From NCBI GenBank assembly GCA_034226945.1, contig CP120460.1:248001-312000 (forward strand): DNA of 64,000 nt. Reading direction: 5' to 3'. Shown piece by piece: positions 10,676 to 59,893 of the stretch. The stretch is from Picochlorum sp. SENEW3. Lineage: Eukaryota. How positions within the stretch are numbered: the first letter of the stretch is position 1; each line of letters begins with the position of its first letter. A program made the position numbers and the translations under genes. The notes under the pieces are model-generated. The model ran no database searches. It worked only from the letters and a program-made list of their open reading frames with translations, and was not told the origin of the DNA.

Positions 10676-11323
10676 CTATGCGATTTCCCTTTTCAAATAT
10701 CCGACTGCTTTTGCATCCAGAGCAATATCAGTTGGGAGATCAATGGCGGAGAACTCTGGCTTGTTCTGCACGTACAACCCAGAGTTGTTCAGCATAAGCT
10801 CGTACCCCCCGACAGTCATAAAGGAAACGGTTTCTTCGTTTGGTGAGACAGTTAAAGTTCCAATCTCCAATGCAGTCCGCGTTGTCGTGCCCCAGATTCG
10901 GATCTCATTTGCTGACATACAGTAAGAAGCAGTATCGTTACTGTAGCTTTTCAGGGGAACCTCAAATTTCAAGGAAGAGGACGCAAGAGCCATGCCATCC
11001 TCTTTCGACGCAATGAAACCTTCTTGTGTTTGAACTTTCTGAGTGTACTCCACAAGGCCATAAATTGCTCCCCCCATTGTGCCGAGTACAATGAGAATCA
11101 TCACGAACAGACCGATGGCAATTTTGCGGAGCATCAAAACATCCCTGTGGCGACCATGCTCCGCAAGAAATGCAGTAATGAGCTCATTCGAGGTGATGGA
11201 TCCGTCTTGATCGACATCAGCTGACTGAATACGCGATACCAGGGATGGGCTCAATGATTTGATCCTCAGCAGGTCCTCCACCCTGATCTCGCGTGCCTTT
11301 TCCTCTGTCTTGTCGAGACTCAT
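10676..11323 (-). CDS. EF-hand/transmembrane protein, family member 1 (215 aa, no C-terminal cargo)
   Basis: EF loop DVDQDGSITSNE, TM IAIGLFVMILIVLGTMGGAIYGLV, then beta-rich domain; aligns with 11789 and 56156 proteins. Confidence 0.8.
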   Translation of the reverse strand: MSLDKTEEKAREIRVEDLLRIKSLSPSLVSRIQSADVDQDGSITSNELITAFLAEHGRHRDVLMLRKIAIGLFVMILIVLGTMGGAIYGLVEYTQKVQTQEGFIASKEDGMALASSSLKFEVPLKSYSNDTASYCMSANEIRIWGTTTRTALEIGTLTVSPNEETVSFMTVGGYELMLNNSGLYVQNKPEFSAIDLPTDIALDAKAVGYLKREIA

Positions 11324-11592
11324 ATGTGAAATTTCCGTTTGTAGCAGTTTGATCGTTTCTTGTAGAATCTGTCAGAAACGAATTTTCCCGAGTTCAACTG
11401 ATGAGATGAGCGTGCAAACCTGGCTTCGTACGTCGCGTGTCACCCTACCCTCTGTAGTAGAGTCAGGCAGGCTCCTTTGCAACCCTTCTTGGGTAACCAA
11501 TCGCAAATATTTTATCTTTTTTGTATATACAGCAGAAAATTTTCTCACTCGTCTTGGCGTACGCCTTTCTTTGCGAACAATGCTGTAGATCC

Positions 11593-11659
11593 GGTCCAGC
11601 TATAGCTGGGCCTACGGTACCCCGGCCGCGGTACCGGTCTCTGATGTGAATCCGGATTC
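11593..11659. promoter_or_regulatory. Palindrome cluster in divergent promoter
   Basis: CCAGCTATAGCTGG (11596-11609), CGGTACC-C-CGGCCG-C-GGTACCG (11615-11636), GAATCCGGATTC (11648-11659); function inferred from position. Confidence 0.5.
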
Positions 11660-11788
11660 GGTTTTACCCCTCCCGTGATTGGATAGGTTTCCTCCAACAT
11701 AAAAGGATGCAAAGATATTGACAACAAAAGTGTTATTGTAATAAGTTTTAAAATTCAGAAGGCGTTTGAAATATTGTCACAACACAGC

Positions 11789-12865
11789 ATGAGTGAAAAT
11801 TCAGCATACATACCCCTGTCTGAGCTACGGGAGCTCAAGACCCTAACCCGTTCGCAAATCACCCGTTTGGAGGGACTCGATAGTGATGGGAAAGGACTTT
11901 TGAAGGCTGAAGATATTCTTCAAGTATTGGAAAATGATCATAAGAAAGAATCTCAGAAAGCATTCTTCAACAGGTTGATCCTTCTCCTTCTGGTGAGTGG
12001 GGTGATCCTCATTGGTGCTTTGTGTGGCATTACCTATGGCATTGTGGCTACAACAAATGAACTTAATGTCGACAATGATGACCATGTTCTGAAAACAAGT
12101 GCAAATGGGGATATAGCTGGACTAGGGGCCGTTGTGAGTACTGAGTCAGCTGAGTCAGTTTTGTCATCCACGAAGCCCTGGGGGATCTCAAGAGTCAATT
12201 TCGTGAGAGAAGACACCGAGGAATATGGATTTATTGCAATTAATGCGATACAGGTGATTGAGAATGGTACTGCTCTTGTTCGAAGCGTTCTTGGTGAAGA
12301 ATTAATTCTGGATGAGTCTGGTGTTCTGGTGGCATACGGTGAGACAAGTGGCCGCAAGCTTTTGATTTTCGGCGCAATCGGAAATGCATTCCAGAGTTTC
12401 GTAGAAGTAGTGATCGAACCACTTGCAAAGACTGTAAGTGACGCATTTAAAGATGTATTCGGTATCTCCCTGTTTGAGTTGCTTGCTGTCTTGGATGGAG
12501 CTAATACTGCTGTAGCCGAGGTAACAAGAGAGGGCCTTCTGGATATGATAGATTTTATCTCTCCCAAGATGGGCAGCTGCGTCAGAAAATTCGAACCAAC
12601 TAATTTGGACTGCTACACATTTTTCCCTTGTTTCGATTTTCTCAGACGGAATTTTCAAGGTCAAGTAAATGCTTGTGCAGGCAGAGGAGACAAGGAAATT
12701 TGCTTGACCACTGCAATTGGGGGTATGATGAATCAGAACGAGGGCGACATTCTCAACTTTATTCGTGGACTCGTTCCAGCCCTCGAAGATTGTGCCGTCA
12801 AGGGGGACTTTACTGCATGTGTGGAAACCTTCTCATGTCTGTCCCAGGGGAGAAAACTGCTCTAG
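11789..12865 (+). CDS. EF-hand/transmembrane protein, family member 2 (358 aa) with GRKLL motif and 8-Cys helical C-terminal domain
   Basis: Degenerate EF loop DSDGKGLLKAED, TM LILLLLVSGVILIGALCGITYGIV, GRKLL at 12350-12364 and again at the C-terminus. Confidence 0.8.
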   Translation: MSENSAYIPLSELRELKTLTRSQITRLEGLDSDGKGLLKAEDILQVLENDHKKESQKAFFNRLILLLLVSGVILIGALCGITYGIVATTNELNVDNDDHVLKTSANGDIAGLGAVVSTESAESVLSSTKPWGISRVNFVREDTEEYGFIAINAIQVIENGTALVRSVLGEELILDESGVLVAYGETSGRKLLIFGAIGNAFQSFVEVVIEPLAKTVSDAFKDVFGISLFELLAVLDGANTAVAEVTREGLLDMIDFISPKMGSCVRKFEPTNLDCYTFFPCFDFLRRNFQGQVNACAGRGDKEICLTTAIGGMMNQNEGDILNFIRGLVPALEDCAVKGDFTACVETFSCLSQGRKLL

Positions 12866-13494
12866 CTTGAACTCAATGTAATGGAATCAAGTTTCTTGCA
12901 AAGATAACTCGAAGCACAGCATTGACAGCGTTAGCGAGTTGAATTCTTTTCAAATCAGACTATGTAGAGACTTTCTTCCAAAAAGAGAAGATCTGTGATC
13001 CTTTTTGGTGCACTCGTAGCTTCCAAGCATGTAATTGTATCATTGTATGGTCACATGCATGGTCACCACATCATGATGAGGAAGTTTTATACAGTTCCCG
13101 TGATTTACGTTACATGTATGTACCATTTCATCAATGAAATACACCTACATCACCTCAAGCTATGAAACAGCGTGACGGCCTCGGTCGTTCGTTGCGCATT
13201 GCTGGCATGGCATTTTGCCCGTGCACCAGCCTCATCCCAATCACATGTCGAGATTTTCCTGCTCCATTACGTTGGCGTGGTGTACATACCATGCTAAGAC
13301 TATCACAATGCTGTACAGCATACATGTATGAGCATCATCTGAACATGGCATGCAATACACTCGGCCGTCCTGTAGATGTGCAAATCTACGTCATTGATCG
13401 GTCCGAGAATCAGTTGACCAAGAAAACTGCATTGGACAGATCAAGGAGGTGTCCCCTTCTCATTCGCAAACCAGAATTATTTCAAATTTCAATC

Positions 13495-13938
13495 ATGTCT
13501 GATATTGTGTCACTTTCTGATCAAGATTCAAGCCCAATTGGGATTGCCAAGGCAGTGCTTGGTGATATGCCGTTCTCGTACGAGGCTATTCACAATCGGA
13601 CAGGTCTCTCACGATCTGCTTGTGCCCATGCTGTTCTCTCCGCGTGTACGAATATTCCTGACGGATATGATTGCGGAAAGGCAGGCGAAAAATTATTAGA
13701 AAGACTCCTCGGTGAAGTCACCCCGTCAGACGTCGAGGGTCGTTCCATCGAAGGTCCTTCTGCTTATATTCAAAAATTTCGAAAGTATGCAGAGAGTCAG
13801 GGGGTAAAGGGGTTCCCTCGTATCACCTGCTATGTCGTGGAAGATGGCATTGAGTATGCTATAGGGATACTCTTTTACGCGTATATGCTGTTTCAGGATG
13901 AAGATTTCATGTTGTCCTACAGGAAAACGGAATTATAA
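13495..13938 (+). pseudogene. 3'-truncated copy of the 207-aa orphan gene
   Basis: Near-identical to 7059 protein up to SYRKTE, then TTA TAA; about 235 bp of copy A replaced by a short AT-rich filler. Confidence 0.7.
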
Positions 13939-16659: not shown

Positions 16660-17913
16660 TCATATATTGATGAGAATGGCTAGGGACAACAAAATAGCAC
16701 CAAAACCACACCATGTCTGTCCATGCGCCCAAGACGTCGCCTCATTCCTCGTATCATCACTACCATCGGCACTGTTTGAGGATGCATTCTTCAATAATCC
16801 ATGGATGCCTGCATTGGCTTTGACCCAAGCACGTGCTTCCTCCTGGCCAAGATTGAACAAATCATCCAGTCGATCAGGATATGGAATATATGCCATACAT
16901 TGCCATTCAAAACAGCTATAATTCAATGGAATATACTTTCCTGGATAAATATCAGCTTCACCAGGAGGCATGAATGTCGAGGGCCCTGCAGGACATGATG
17001 TAGGCAAGTCTCCAGTGCTCGTGAAATTGGCCCACGCTGGAGGTGGTGGGCCCTTTGCTGACTGATTGAATGTCCCCCCAGCCACCTCGAGGCATTGTGA
17101 CACCAATTCTCCCGCTACAGCAGCATCCACGTTATCCTGTGTCGTACACACAGGTCCAGCTTCAGTCGTGTTTGGATAATACACTTGAATTGTCAAACAT
17201 GATGTCTCATTCCCTCCACACAAATCAGACAGAGTTGTACTATACCCTCCATCCACGGTCGCCATACCATCATTCACAAAATACGGTACTGACATGGAAG
17301 AGCATGATAGGAAAGAACTGCTGATCAAATCCCTCAAAATGGCCTCATCTGTTGAATGATTTGCAACAATGGTAGACGTCAATGTATTCATCGTTGGATC
17401 ATTGGGATCTACCTCTGTGAAAGCGATACCCACGTGGGAACACTTTTCAGCAATAGAATTGATCGAAGAGGGGTCATACAAGGTCGAAAACCCCTCGTAC
17501 TCGATAGAGCCCAGCTGCCCATTGCATGGAAACACACCACTCTTGGGATCCCACGATTCATAACAATCCACGAGAGCACCCTTCAACAACTGGTACTGGT
17601 CCATAGGACGCACCCCAGCACATGTCAACATTGCCGTAACCGCACCACCGCTCAAACCAGCCCCTGGCATGGACTCTGGCTGAACCACACCCTCCTCCAC
17701 GAGAGCCTCCATAGCTCCCAAGTACCACGGCAGCAACAGCGCACTGCACGATATCAACGTATGTAATCATTCAAAATGTGATTATTATAACATACTATGC
17801 ATCCAAGTGTGTGTATCGAACCTCCCAGCCACAGCATATCGCTCCAGTTGGCCACTCGCAGTCCCCAACAAGATACCCCACAGGACAGCCCCGACAGCCA
17901 GATGCCTCTGCAT
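16660..17913 (-). CDS. Patatin-like lipid acyl hydrolase with signal peptide and hydrophobic C-tail; intron 17744-17821
   Basis: GLSGG (GxSxG) nucleophile, VDGGY, LLLPWYLG; exon 1 MQRHLAVGAVLWGILLGTASG joins in phase 2 (donor GTTCGA is weak). Confidence 0.75.
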
Positions 17914-56155: not shown

Positions 56156-57148
56156 TCAATTGCAATATTTATCAGAACACCATTCTTCACAGGGGATCCC
56201 TTGGCTTCTACGTTCATCACAAATATATTTCATACAATTCGAGAACTTAACTTCGCACGTATCTGGAGCAGGCGCGGATCCACTGCAAAATTTATCAGAA
56301 CACTGCTTTTCACAGGAGATCCCATTTCTCACATAGTCATAATCACAATGATACTGCATACAATCCAGATACATGTCTTCCTGCATTGAGCTGGTGCACG
56401 AGTCTGGAACAGCAGGCGTTGATCTGGTTCCCACGCCATATCCTGTTTGCGTGCTGGCGCTCCTGAGCCTGCGACCAGGAGAAGCATCCTCAAGACCTGA
56501 GCCTGTTATGTCTAGAGAATCGACAATAGCATCTCTGAGGTACACGAGGCCAGTGGTGCCCACCTCAATAATGCTGCCATCCATGCTGACAATAATTGCT
56601 CTCTGCTCACCAGGAAACGACCGAACGCTGGCAACACGGTGTACCTCGTACCCGCCACCAGCCTGAGGCATGACCACGACTTCGAGCTGCTGTGCCAGAG
56701 GTACATCTGGGAAGCTTCCGGTGTGTCCATCATCATTTCTGTCTGTGCTGTTGTTTCCACTATACAGCTTTGACAAGTCCAGCAAGTTTGTAGCCTTACC
56801 TGTCGCCATTACCGTGCCAGTATTGGCACTCACCAGAACGCCATTATTGTCATCCACCTCGTCCGTCAGTTTGACAATCCCGTAAACCGCCCCAACCAGA
56901 GCAGCCACCAATATCAGGACCGCCACAACCAGGGCAATCAGGAAGTTGCGAAAGAGCCTGCGGTCGGCATGGGCCTTCTGCTCGCTCTGCACCAGCTGGA
57001 TCAGCTCTTGCATGCTCAAGTTCCCATCTTTATCGATATCCACTTCTTTAATTCTCTTCAGTACTGATGGGGATGCGATTTTAGCCAGGTCAGAAACGTC
57101 CACCACGTGCTCGGGTTCGCGTGCAGTTTGCTCTGCTGCTGTTGCCAT
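56156..57148 (-). CDS. EF-hand/transmembrane protein, family member 3 (330 aa) with GRRL motif and two 6-Cys repeats
   Basis: EF loop DIDKDGNLSMQE, TM FLIALVVAVLILVAALVGAVYGIV, GRRL at 56476-56465, tandem Cys repeats at the C-terminus. Confidence 0.85.
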   Translation of the reverse strand: MATAAEQTAREPEHVVDVSDLAKIASPSVLKRIKEVDIDKDGNLSMQELIQLVQSEQKAHADRRLFRNFLIALVVAVLILVAALVGAVYGIVKLTDEVDDNNGVLVSANTGTVMATGKATNLLDLSKLYSGNNSTDRNDDGHTGSFPDVPLAQQLEVVVMPQAGGGYEVHRVASVRSFPGEQRAIIVSMDGSIIEVGTTGLVYLRDAIVDSLDITGSGLEDASPGRRLRSASTQTGYGVGTRSTPAVPDSCTSSMQEDMYLDCMQYHCDYDYVRNGISCEKQCSDKFCSGSAPAPDTCEVKFSNCMKYICDERRSQGIPCEEWCSDKYCN

Positions 57149-57556
57149 GGGAAATCTTGCCTTAGATAAAGATAAACAATTTTACTCTCCAAATTTATAT
57201 ACCTTTTCCATAAACAGTAAAAATTATACAATTGTAATTATATAAGCAATACTTCTGGGAAACTGTAACAGCACAGATGATGCCTCAAGGCACTCTCTCA
57301 TTAAGTAATCAATCTACCAATTGGTAGGTCTTGCAAGAAGATTACATAATATAACCATGAACCAGAGTCTATACTCGAAGACTCATAAGATTATTTACCA
57401 TTCTACTACATAAACCATCGTTTAACACATTATAATCAAGGCCTGTGTTACCAGGATACCAACATAGTGCAGTCTCTACTACGGTGTGGACCATCAGCCG
57501 ACCGAACCTTCTCCATCCGTATTCAATCGACCTTCTGGCGGTCTTTGCAGGACGAG

Positions 57557-57792
57557 ATGCAAGATAAGGAGGCTGCATTAACGAAGGGGTGGTGGACGTG
57601 GAGTTGCTGCTGCATAGTGGGGCCATCCCACCCAACCTGTCAGACCGCATACGAGCAGCGGATGCCAATCAGGATGGGCGCCTCTCAGTGCTGGAGCTGG
57701 CCACCATGGTGGAGGTGATGCGCAGGGAGCAGAAGGCGGTTGAGGACCGCAAACTATTCCGCAACATCTTGTTGGTCCTTGTACGACTTTGA
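57557..57792 (+). pseudogene. Frameshifted, truncated EF-hand/TM family member 4
   Basis: ATG 57557 (MQDKEAALTKG) is out of frame with VVDVELL...DANQDGRLSVLE...DRKLFRNILLVL at a G-run near 57586-57589; stops inside the TM helix. Confidence 0.7.
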
Positions 57793-57936
57793 TGATCCAT
57801 TCAACGTTATGTTGATATTGTAATATGTGTACATCAAATAAGGTGCAACCAATACTGCGTTGCACTAGGGCAGTTGGGCAGGTAAAGTGGTGACGCTGTA
57901 TGTTATAACATAATTATAATTATCATCAGCACATCT

Positions 57937-57996
57937 AGATCCGGATCTGCTTCGAATTCGAACCAGAGGTCCAGACGTAATTACGTGACGGTCTGG
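57937..57996. promoter_or_regulatory. Palindrome cluster upstream of DUF285 gene
   Basis: AGATCCGGATCT, TTCGAATTCGAA, ACGTAATTACGT and CCAGAC..GTCTGG; function inferred from position. Confidence 0.5.
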
Positions 57997-58201
57997 TCGT
58001 AACGTAAGTGGATACTAGAGCAAGCTCGTTCGCGCAATACGCACGGATAGTTTTTATGATAATAAATAGTGCGATATATATTAAGACCAAAAAAAGAAAG
58101 ATCCTGCGAGAAATTCGGAATACCATAGTCAGACCCACACGAGTTCAAAATTGCATCCACCTGTTCTCGCTCATTCCATCCAAGGGGTACTGCCTACAAG
58201 G

Positions 58202-59574
58202 ATGGCTTCTACCATGCTTGCCATACTCGCCACAATTTGGCTACATCTCGTGATAGGAACATGTGCAAATACTAATGCTTCGGTATCAGCATCATATGCA
58301 GAGCGGGAGTCGACCCTCGGAGGAATGTGCTTTGAAAGCACCCTTACAAATGAAGCATCTCTCAGAAGTCTTCGGAGACAAGTTGTCAAATTCAATCAAA
58401 AGAAAAGGTAGCGTCTTCTTTTTCTCTTTTTCAACATCGTATCCCATTGGATGATTATCATCAATGTTTGACCATGGTCTATGTACCCCATGCTTGCAGT
58501 ATGTACAGAGATGGTGACATTATTGCCGTGTACACTCTAGACAGACCTGGGCATGGGAGTCTGGCTGGGTGTGCAGATGCGTGCCTTTTGAATTGGAGAT
58601 TGACAGCTGACACGACCCAAGCTCTAGATACAGATTGCTCTGTTGAAAGCCATTGTCCCATGGCGTCTGGTATACTTGTCGCAGATCGAAAGTGCGAAGC
58701 CTTCATGTTTAACCGACAGACAAGTGTGTGCACGTTGCTGTCAGCTGAGCGATCCATGCGGCTTACCCGCAGCAGCAATTTCTGGTCTGGCAAGCTTCTA
58801 TGTGATGATATGAGCAGTGTTGATGACTGGGCAGAAGGTGTTGTCAGCAGGCGCAGCCCTCCTCCGTCTGCACCTCCATCTTTGTTCTACCTTGATTCTA
58901 ATGGGGTGACTGTCAAATGTCCTGGCGCAGCTAATTTAGAGACAGGAATTGTTGATGGAGTACTATATACAAAGAGATCTAGGGCGGATATCTTCCCTAT
59001 GATTAATGACCCTGCGCAATGGGGTAGTCTTTCCACAACATGCACCTCAGGGATCTCTGATATGAGCGTTGGTGACGGTGACAGGAATTCAAGTGCAGCA
59101 GATTTTAACTCAGATATCAGTTCATGGGACACATCAGATGTCATCACAATGTCTGGCATGTTTTATGGTGCGAGGTTGTTCAACCAAGATATTGGCTCAT
59201 GGGACACGTCATCTGTCACAGACATGCTTGTCATGTTTGCTGGAGCAACGTCCTTCAACCAAGACCTCAACGATTGGGACACATCGTCTGTCACAAACAT
59301 GCTTGCCATGTTTGAATCCGCAGAAAGCTTTAATGGGAATATCAGGGATTGGAACACATCATCTGTCAAATCAATGGTCGCCATGTTTCAGAATGCAGTA
59401 GCCTTCAATCAAGATCTTCGCAACTGGGATGGATCTTCATTGGAGGAGGAATCATGCGCCGATTTTGCCACTGGGGCAACAGCCTGGCTGGCTGCATATG
59501 ATTGGAGCACAAATCCTCCAATATCACAAAGCATGGACACTGCAGGATGCGATGATGATGTTGTTCCGGCTTAA
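58202..59574 (+). CDS. Secreted PAN/apple-like + DUF285 (BspA-like 25-residue repeat) protein; intron 58408-58499
   Basis: Signal peptide [24 protein letters not shown]...CEAFMFN..SVCTL..WSG; four to five FNxDIxxWDTSSVTxMxxMF repeats; intron phase 2 consistent. Confidence 0.85.
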
Positions 59575-59893
59575 ATCATCAACATTAGAGCAGCCATTGA
59601 CCCAATATGATGGCTGGCAAGCTATATGAACATGTAGCATAACAAGTACAGTGAATATGCATGCATCCCATACATGGGCAGCACATTTCATGATGCTGCA
59701 ACAAGTACCCTAATAAATAAAGAATCCAGACAAACCCATTACCTACCACAGCGTCTTACTCTCATGCTGTTGTAATATCAAAAAGTACTACATATATAGA
59801 TGTCGTATCATTCATGACATCTCAATCCCTTGTTGTTTGTTCTCAGTAGTTGTTCAGGAGCGAAATCACTGTGGCAGAGAGCAATTGAGAGAA

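Follow-up and report, generated by a model that had tools for sequence, protein, structure and literature searches.

How could a set of proteins that share one membrane-anchored front part come to end in different cysteine-rich tails, and what might such a design be for? The question is raised by a 64,000-nucleotide stretch of contig CP120460.1 (Picochlorum sp. SENEW3, positions 248,001 to 312,000), here called the window, in which two loci hold three intact genes, P0001, P0002 and P0003, and a fragment of a fourth. An earlier interpretation made without database searches, the sequence-only reading, had seen in them type II membrane precursors that display or release variable disulfide-rich effectors. 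By sequence comparison, P0001–P0003 belong to a large, undescribed eukaryotic family. The explanation we favor, and hold to be somewhat more probable than not, is that its members are type II pro-proteins that would be cut at an RRLL-type site in the secretory pathway, releasing a variable cargo from a conserved carrier.

The carrier module, its family and its orientation

Homology among the members in the window is significant. P0001 matches the P0003 locus with a tblastn E value of 8.6e-18, P0002 matches P0003 with 1e-13 over residues 17–186 and P0001 with 3e-5, and the fragment is recovered by a hidden Markov model (HMM) at 2.3e-17. The four homologs of the sequence-only reading, three open reading frames (ORFs) and a remnant, are therefore upheld, with one correction: the ATG at 57557, which it took as the start of the remnant, belongs to a different reading frame. 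In the homologous frame, the sequence stays open from position 57568, contains no ATG, has its first start at a GTG (57589), and ends in two stops within the membrane helix. No remains of the beta domain that follows this helix in the intact proteins were found by HMM in any forward frame of 57300–59700. The fragment thus looks like a dead copy of a family member.

Relatives were sought in a collection of 5.8 billion proteins, which yielded 20 for P0003, eight for P0002 and six for P0001; all lack an informative name, and none comes with a precomputed Pfam domain. When 1.84 billion cluster representatives were scored with a profile built from 22 sequences, 657 matched at E ≤ 1e-3, 146 of them at ≤ 1e-10 and 46 at ≤ 1e-30; 4 of the 150 listed matches (P0120, P0146, P0159 and P0167) were generic multi-EF-hand proteins hitting the loop alone. 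The ESM Atlas neighbors of P0003 fall into clusters of 60–310 members, all named "hypothetical" or "EF-hand" and all eukaryotic. The labels of these clusters define the taxonomic range given here: those with a phylum label are mostly Bacillariophyta, with one Chlorophyta-labeled and one Haptophyta-labeled cluster at lower scores. A literature search, which left most subscription journals outside its reach, found no paper describing such a family.

The module opens with a short head that carries one EF-hand loop. The canonical pattern D-x-[DNS]-x-[DNSG]-G-x-[ILV]-x-x-x-[ED] is present in 104 of 121 members, P0001 and P0003 included, and none of these 104 has a second loop in the module. The corresponding loop of P0002, DSDGKGLLKAED, is degenerate, with lysine at position 5, and P0002 has no Pfam EF-hand match; the single EF-hand loop that the sequence-only reading had assigned to all members accordingly holds for P0001 and P0003 and lapses for P0002. 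Two relatives, P0036 (26.4 bits) and P0060 (27.5 bits), score above the cut-off of the Pfam EF-hand families PF00036/PF13202, and among solved structures the family profile finds only the EF loops of calmodulin and calcineurin B (best E 1.6e-7). Other candidates were rejected: the NCBIfam calcium-binding effector XopAW (E 0.13, 12 bits against a cut-off of 120), and Pfam DUF7248, DUF5345, DUF7396 and Dockerin_1, all of which fell below cut-off and overlie the helix or the loop. Beyond this single loop, the N-terminal module resembles no described family in Pfam, NCBIfam or solved structures, as the sequence-only reading had supposed.

When P0003 was modeled by AlphaFold from a 22-row alignment (mean predicted local distance difference test score, pLDDT, 68.5), the exit helix of the EF loop ran unbroken through the membrane segment as one helix of residues 46–97. 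The membrane helix closes with YG(I/L)V in all three intact proteins, a detail already noted in the sequence-only reading, and is followed by a beta-rich domain without conserved cysteine. Folded alone from a 111-row alignment, this lumenal part reaches pLDDT 82.5 and a predicted template modeling score of 0.65, with seven strands. Foldseek searches with the full-length and domain models of P0003 returned nothing at E ≤ 1e-3. VIA-align of the beta domain against 48,161 solved chains gave a best Z of 4.0 over 54 aligned residues, which we count as low because best Z values of 7–8 are usual for models that Foldseek does not clearly match. The modeled beta domain is thus without a match to a known fold, which does not in itself prove a new one. 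By analogy with Bri2, discussed below, it is probably a pro-domain, serving as a folding or sorting aid.

Orientation in the membrane was judged from counted sequence indicators, with flanks of 15 residues on either side of the helix. In 131 of 132 members, the N-side flank holds more lysine plus arginine than the C-side one (means 4.2 and 1.2), and N-glycosylation sequons rise from 0.22 per 100 residues before the helix to 0.88 after it. No hydrophobic N-terminus was found in P0001–P0003 by hydropathy windows (rather than SignalP); the best 19-residue hydrophobic windows of the three start at residues 62, 63 and 70, in keeping with the absence of a signal peptide claimed earlier. Together with the cysteines beyond the helix and the secretory type of most recognizable cargo (both described below), these charges and sequons argue for an N-in/C-out, type II signal anchor. 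The tails are therefore predicted, with support from each of these indicators, to be lumenal or extracellular, as the sequence-only reading had it.

The R-[RK]-L-[LM] motif and the tails beyond it

The end of the module was located in each protein with an HMM that covers it as far as the motif. Within −5 to +60 residues of that end, [RK][RK]{1,3}L occurs in 112 of the 134 members with a complete module; when the same tails were shuffled 200 times, it occurred in 5.8 on average and in 12 at most. In a logo aligned on the leucine (n = 112), position −2 is arginine in 111 sequences, −1 is arginine in 86 and lysine in 26, −3 is glycine in 55 and arginine in 42, and +1 is leucine in 67 and methionine in 16. 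The consensus is thus G-R-R-L-L or, more broadly, G-R-[RK]-L-[LM]. P0002 carries RKLL and P0003 RRLR. Conservation is tight within the P0002 clade, where R-K-L-L is invariant in 9 of 9 aligned sequences (the preceding glycine is asparagine in one), and reaches far across the family, since the motif is retained in representatives only about 15–30% identical to P0003 in the lumenal domain.

An N-x-S/T sequon lies no more than 13 residues upstream of the motif leucine in 47 of 112 members. The motif region is the least confident part of both models, with residues 211–243 below pLDDT 50 in the full-length model and the last blocks of the domain model at 51–59, which fits a site in a flexible linker. 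Several members (among them P0075, P0116, P0145, P0157 and P0171) have at least two motifs that bracket separate modules, a layout typical of polyprotein processing. In P0157, of 1429 residues, a Trypsin domain is followed by Peptidase_M43, each behind its own site (RRLL and RRML, respectively).

What follows the motif varies widely. BLASTP clustering at E ≤ 1e-3 of the 104 members whose tails reach 30 residues or more past the motif puts all N-modules into one component and divides the tails into 68, 56 of them singletons; the number of tail components is an upper estimate, because short cysteine-rich sequences are hard for BLAST. Tail divergence within clades always exceeds that of the carrier, the respective carrier and tail identities being 86 and 40% for P0004, 67 and 20% for P0010, 50 and 2% for P0016, 97 and 73% for P0024, and 73 and 35% for P0029. 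The sequence-only reading had described the tails of the window members as differing completely. Among close relatives this goes too far, as the tails of the P0003 clade share a cysteine scaffold at 20–47% identity. Its expectation that homologs would keep the motif ahead of varied C-termini is matched by the 112 of 134 members with the motif and the 68 tail clusters among 104.

Tail length ranges from 3 to over 500 residues, and the number of tail cysteines from 0 to 34. Per 100 residues, there are 0.51 cysteines in the part before the motif and 5.50 in the part behind it, and tail cysteine counts are even in 72 members, odd in 18 and zero in 22. The P0002 tail comprises 166 residues, is helical and has eight cysteines; that of P0003 is acidic and cysteine-rich, its 12 cysteines being arranged as two C-x(6–11)-C-x4-C-x(9–10)-C-x3-C-x4-C repeats. 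Both counts agree with those first reported. An Atlas search with the P0002 tail gave no usable match. Contigs of two sequencing runs (X1 and X2), which are labeled "RNA?", are probably DNA of a related organism and were not used as evidence of expression, track the window through the P0002 carrier and become unlike it from 12391 and 12488, shortly past the motif at 12350–12364, in line with the faster divergence of tails seen within clades.

A Pfam scan of 109 members left 101 without a tail domain. In the remaining eight, the non-EF-hand domain is always C-terminal to the N-module: DUF285 in P0073, ubiquitin in P0074, the cathepsin-propeptide Inhibitor_I29 in P0131, Hint in P0145, P0151, P0160 and P0168, and the Trypsin–Peptidase_M43 pair in P0157. 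Seven of these eight cargoes are of secretory or extracellular type.

Proposed processing and competing explanations

Thus, we propose that a short cytosolic head with exactly one EF-hand loop would pass, through its exit helix, into a signal-anchor helix, and that the lumenal beta-rich domain of about 110 residues would act as a pro-domain. A flexible linker, often with an N-glycosylation sequon, would then present G-R-[RK]-L-[LM], followed by a fast-evolving cargo, usually one or more small disulfide-rich domains and occasionally an enzyme, a Hint or a DUF285 module. A secretory-pathway protease, in the endoplasmic reticulum (ER) or Golgi, may cut the motif and free the cargo for secretion or extracellular deposition, while the carrier would stay in the membrane. 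Candidates are a subtilase like site-1 protease (S1P) or an aspartyl protease like plasmepsin V and ASP5, that is, the diatom "RXL" protease. With the EF-hand fused to the anchor helix, trafficking or oligomerization may be under Ca2+ control, and cytosolic Ca2+ may act through the EF-hand on trafficking or release; this part is conjecture. Cleavage, Ca2+ binding and the roles given here to the beta domain and the cargo are putative, unlike the family, its architecture, the motif, the tail diversity and the topology indicators.

Precursors that carry a hypervariable C-terminal peptide behind a membrane anchor or a pro-domain are already known from other systems; the novelty here lies in the EF-hand head, in the breadth of cargo and in a carrier fold that the searches matched to no known one. 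Conotoxin-type precursors and bacterial polymorphic toxins likewise combine a conserved leader or delivery part, a short motif and a hypervariable C-terminus. The family differs from them in its eukaryotic membrane-anchored carrier, and no toxin domain was found by Pfam in the tails of 109 members; neighboring immunity genes were not searched for.

The closest parallel in design is Bri2 (ITM2B), which the cited excerpt describes as a type II protein whose conserved lumenal BRICHOS domain is regarded as an intramolecular chaperone and whose convertase site frees a 23-residue disulfide-bearing C-terminal peptide in the Golgi (PMC10932164). Similarly, an excerpt on polychaete BRICHOS antimicrobial-peptide precursors places the peptide after the conserved domain (PMC6265681). 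The predicted layout of the present family resembles that of Bri2 in the type II anchor, in a long helix leading to a conserved lumenal domain, and in a putative processing site ahead of a C-terminal part. The family does not appear to belong to BRICHOS, as that Pfam domain has no match in P0001–P0003 at E ≤ 1 or in 109 members at E ≤ 1e-4. Moreover, BRICHOS precursors have a furin-type site ending in arginine, whereas the family has an RRLL-type site, an EF-hand in the cytosolic head, and a lumenal domain without conserved cysteine or a match to a solved fold.

As to the site, diatoms and the parasites Toxoplasma (with its TEXEL motif) and Plasmodium (with PEXEL) belong to SAR lineages, S1P has a wider consensus, and pectin methylesterases carry RRLL and RKLL sites. 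The sequence-only reading had drawn its analogy from plant S1P substrates. This analogy is sound: according to the cited excerpt, S1P (SBT6.1) cuts plant RALF pro-peptides at RRXL and frees a small four-cysteine peptide (PMC11371470). Here too an RRXL-type site stands between a putative pro-region and a putative mature part that bears cysteines, and R-[RK]-L-[LM] fits it; in contrast, RALF precursors are soluble, have a signal peptide, and lack an EF-hand, a membrane anchor and a shared pro-domain. A closer precedent is the diatom biosilica RXL site. The excerpted accounts state that biosilica proteins lose an RXL domain to an unidentified protease and that the membrane proteins Sin1 (RRL) and SAPs also carry the site (PMC5525289, PMC5647440). 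Silaffins, cingulins, silicanin-1 and SAPs, as excerpted, resemble the family in the RXL/RRL motif, in the diatom group and, for some, in being membrane proteins whose lumenal part is rich in cysteine. They differ in having an N-terminal signal peptide with RXL about 30 residues behind it and a type I orientation where membrane-bound, whereas the family has a predicted signal anchor, whose hydrophobic segment starts at residues 62–70 in the window proteins, a motif after a conserved 110-residue domain, within residues 188–228 in P0002 and P0003, and a hypervariable C-terminal cargo. No sequence similarity to these proteins was seen in Pfam scans. In Toxoplasma, Golgi ASP5 is described in the cited excerpt as cutting RRLxx after leucine, including at sites far from the N-terminus (MYR1), and as failing on peptides mutated at P1, P2 or P3 (PMC4764566). 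RRL is present in 86 of 112 family members, P0003 included. The lysine at −1 in the other 26 (RKL in P0002) argues against a strict ASP5-like specificity, and TEXEL proteins have no shared carrier module. Leucine or methionine at +1 in 83 of 112 favors a four-residue site, R-[RK]-L-[LM], and the logo suggests a better fit to the S1P type than to a strict RRL↓ site.

Several observations weigh against release by cleavage, or against parts of the scheme. It is the motif by itself that points to processing, and its strict form is absent from 22 of 134 members, among them P0013 (with the variant RRRVL), the carrier-only P0001 clade and long proteins such as P0168 with its Hint tail. The counts over 134 and 104 members include close relatives of the window proteins and are therefore not independent. 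Some motif carriers have almost no tail, with 9 residues after the motif in P0020, 3 in P0083 and 14–15 in P0153 and P0154; in these, the motif may have a role other than cargo release, or the gene models may be truncated. A further copy of the motif ends the protein in 6 of 9 aligned P0002-clade sequences, P0002 included (...SCLSQGRKL[LF]), and P0095 likewise ends ...PGRRLR. A site at the extreme C-terminus cannot release cargo, which leaves its role unexplained; were the internal P0002 site cut after its second leucine, carrier and cargo would both end in -GRKLL, which hints that the C-terminus itself is recognized. This terminal GRKLL, like the degenerate EF loop of P0002, had not featured in the sequence-only reading. 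A conserved DRRLFRN on the cytosolic side of the helix further means that RRL alone is no mark of a cut, and DR(R/K)LFRN supplies the positive-inside charge. The ubiquitin tail of P0074 is of a typically cytosolic kind and may be a gene-calling fusion. Finally, the Pfam EF-hand scores of P0001 and P0003 (15.4–19.1 bits) lie below the gathering cut-offs (25.4–25.9). EF-hands normally act as pairs; each module has a single one, and that of P0002 is degenerate. Pairing through dimerization is possible, and a homodimer prediction for P0003 (residues 1–230), run without controls, scored 0.01 and speaks neither for nor against it.

Some of these observations sit more easily with proteins that are not cut at all. 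In this alternative, to which we give a minor but appreciable share of the probability, the family would consist of type II surface receptors or adhesins with tethered cysteine-rich tips, and G-R-R-L-L would be a sorting, ER-export or structural signal. The topology indicators fit equally well, the words "display or release" in the sequence-only reading allow for it, and a pure release site would have no need to persist in members that are nearly tailless or at the very end of P0002-clade proteins. What tells against it is the position of the motif in a low-confidence linker, its resemblance to three protease sites known from the excerpts cited above, and the multiple motifs that bracket modules, for example in the RRLL–Trypsin–RRML–M43 series of P0157 and in P0075, P0116, P0145 and P0171. 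A cell-wall function is compatible with cleavage and seems to us rather improbable: the cargo would be delivered to the silica deposition vesicle or frustule, with the EF-hand tying delivery to Ca2+. The acidic, cysteine-rich P0003 tail would suit it, as would Sin1, a membrane protein with RRL and 18 cysteines (excerpt of PMC5525289), and the statement, in an excerpt dating from 2017, that RXL sites were known only from biosilica-associated proteins (PMC5647440). However, P0001–P0003 showed no Pfam family other than the EF-hand, the tails are far more varied than expected of a structural matrix family, and the cargo includes proteases and Hint modules.

Two further alternatives bear on the family as a whole. 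A single EF-hand beside a membrane helix recalls STIM, and with the topology reversed it would sense lumenal Ca2+ and leave the cysteine-rich tail in the cytosol; we regard this as very unlikely, given the positive-inside pattern in 131 of 132 members, the concentration of sequons and cysteines beyond the helix, and the secretory type of most Pfam-bearing tails. Least probable of all is that chance ORFs, mis-called gene models or generic EF-hand matches mimic a variable-tail family. Many database members do come from short contigs and are possibly truncated, loop-only multi-EF-hand proteins make up 4 of the 150 listed matches, and the matches between 1e-3 and 1e-10 were not inspected. Yet the module extends about 190 positions beyond the loop with scores of up to 410 bits, the motif is found in 112 of 134 members where about six are expected by chance, even tail cysteine counts outnumber odd ones by 72 to 18, and relatives of all three window genes keep their length and architecture. 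This artefact was tested here and is not supported.

A bolder extension of the pro-protein model, which we offer tentatively and consider clearly less probable than the model itself, is that the module works as an all-purpose leader cassette for regulated secretion, one that responds to Ca2+ and is most frequent in diatoms. In it, a signal-anchor pro-domain would replace the signal peptide, and nearly any extracellular cargo would be released at RRLL. Such cargo may include disulfide-rich mini-proteins for recognition, allelopathy or defense, proteases, Hint-processed signals and DUF285 repeats, and carrier-only members with an intact loop (P0001) may pair with cargo members whose loop has decayed (P0002), forming a two-EF-hand sensor. 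If this were so, no other substrate class of the diatom RXL protease would be as large as this family. Secreted peptides and regulated secretion in diatoms are little known; the family offers a defined substrate for finding the RXL protease, a catalog of candidate secreted mini-proteins that outpace their carrier in evolution, and a possible link from cytosolic Ca2+ signals to secretion. In diatom biotechnology, the carrier might also find use as a tag for secretion or display.

Gene pairs, transcription and neighboring features

Both loci in the window are head-to-head family pairs, with spacers of 465 and about 440 base pairs (bp) (Table 1). The intact pair joins the carrier-only P0001, with its canonical EF loop, to the cargo-bearing P0002, with its degenerate one. 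P0001 ends ...AVGYLKREIA, at the position where the motif sits in other members. Its six relatives are all of 214–219 residues; one (P0038) is 99% identical, and the five that were aligned, at 60–89% identity, end ...G-x-L/Y-[RKEM]-[RS]-[QN]-[IVM], just past a decayed basic pair. The short carrier-only form is therefore conserved. The eight relatives of P0002 are 55–86% identical to it. P0038, the near-identical (99%) relative of P0001, and P0024, which shares 86% identity with P0002, have longest contigs of equal length, 4925 bases, and those of P0174 and P0031 are both of 4480 bases, which hints at a linkage of P0001- and P0002-type genes elsewhere. A scan of metagenome loci gave two short ones (1867 and 3323 bases) with one family member each and no second copy. 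That P0001 and P0002 may form a heterodimer and so complete an EF-hand pair is an attractive idea.

Within the shared spacer, four bases at 11638–11643 are replaced by 39 others in runs X1 and X2 of the related organism, so that the putative promoter shared by the two genes is polymorphic for an indel. An oligo-dT marine metatranscriptome contains three contigs that match 10809–11343 with no differences, reaching from inside the P0001 ORF to 20 bases upstream of its ATG; the same run gives no cover of the P0001 flanks or of the spacer. This is a hint, not proof, that P0001 is transcribed. P0002 has no cover in RNA run X3, which is uninformative either way.

Table 1. Coordinates of the family genes and their parts in the window
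Feature	Position	Strand	Basis
P0001, 215 residues, carrier-only member: canonical EF loop, membrane helix, beta domain	10676..11323	-	ORF
P0001 EF-hand loop DVDQDGSITSNE, residues 36–47	11183..11218	-	Canonical pattern; Pfam EF-hand_5 E 0.003, below cut-off
Spacer of 465 bp between the divergent P0001 and P0002; possible shared promoter	11324..11788		Coordinates
P0002, 358 residues: degenerate EF loop (residues 31–42), membrane helix (about residues 63–87), beta domain, GRKLL, tail	11789..12865	+	ORF
P0002 internal GRKLL, residues 188–192, proposed processing site	12350..12364	+	Sequence
P0002 second GRKLL, its last five residues	12848..12862	+	Sequence
P0003, 330 residues, full member: carrier, GRRL, tandem 6-Cys cargo	56156..57148	-	ORF
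P0003 EF-hand loop DIDKDGNLSMQE, residues 37–48	57005..57040	-	Canonical pattern
P0003 DR(R/K)LFRN, residues 63–67, cytosolic side, immediately ahead of the membrane helix	56948..56962	-	Conserved sequence
P0003 membrane helix, about residues 70–92, continuous with the EF-loop exit helix	56873..56941	-	Kyte-Doolittle 3.3 at residue 70; model helix, residues 46–97
P0003 conserved lumenal beta-rich domain, residues 96–210	56519..56863	-	Model, seven strands
P0003 GRRL, residues 225–228, in a low-confidence, probably flexible linker	56465..56476	-	Residues 211–243 pLDDT <50
P0003 tail, residues 229–330: TQTGYGV linker and two 6-Cys repeats	56159..56464	-	Modeled helices 254–287, 298–314, 320–329
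Remnant of a fourth member, apparently dead: EF loop DANQDGRLSVLE and first part of the membrane helix	57568..57792	+	HMM 50.6 bits, E 2.3e-17

About 680 bp downstream of the fragment and on the same strand lies an ORF of 366 residues (58474–59574, +) with DUF285, a BspA-like repeat, and no evident signal peptide; the same domain forms the cargo of the database relative P0073. The idea that the fragment is exon 1 of this downstream gene was judged unlikely, as no beta domain was detected by HMM in the intervening sequence and the reading frame with DUF285 leaves the membrane helix incomplete. Near the first locus, two ORFs, of 258 residues (13162–13938, +) and 350 residues (16660–17712, −), are without a Pfam match at E ≤ 1e-5. 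The window has a GC content of about 45% and is nuclear DNA of a photosynthetic eukaryote, with neighboring ORFs that include PsbP, ferroportin, PCNA and valyl-tRNA synthetase.

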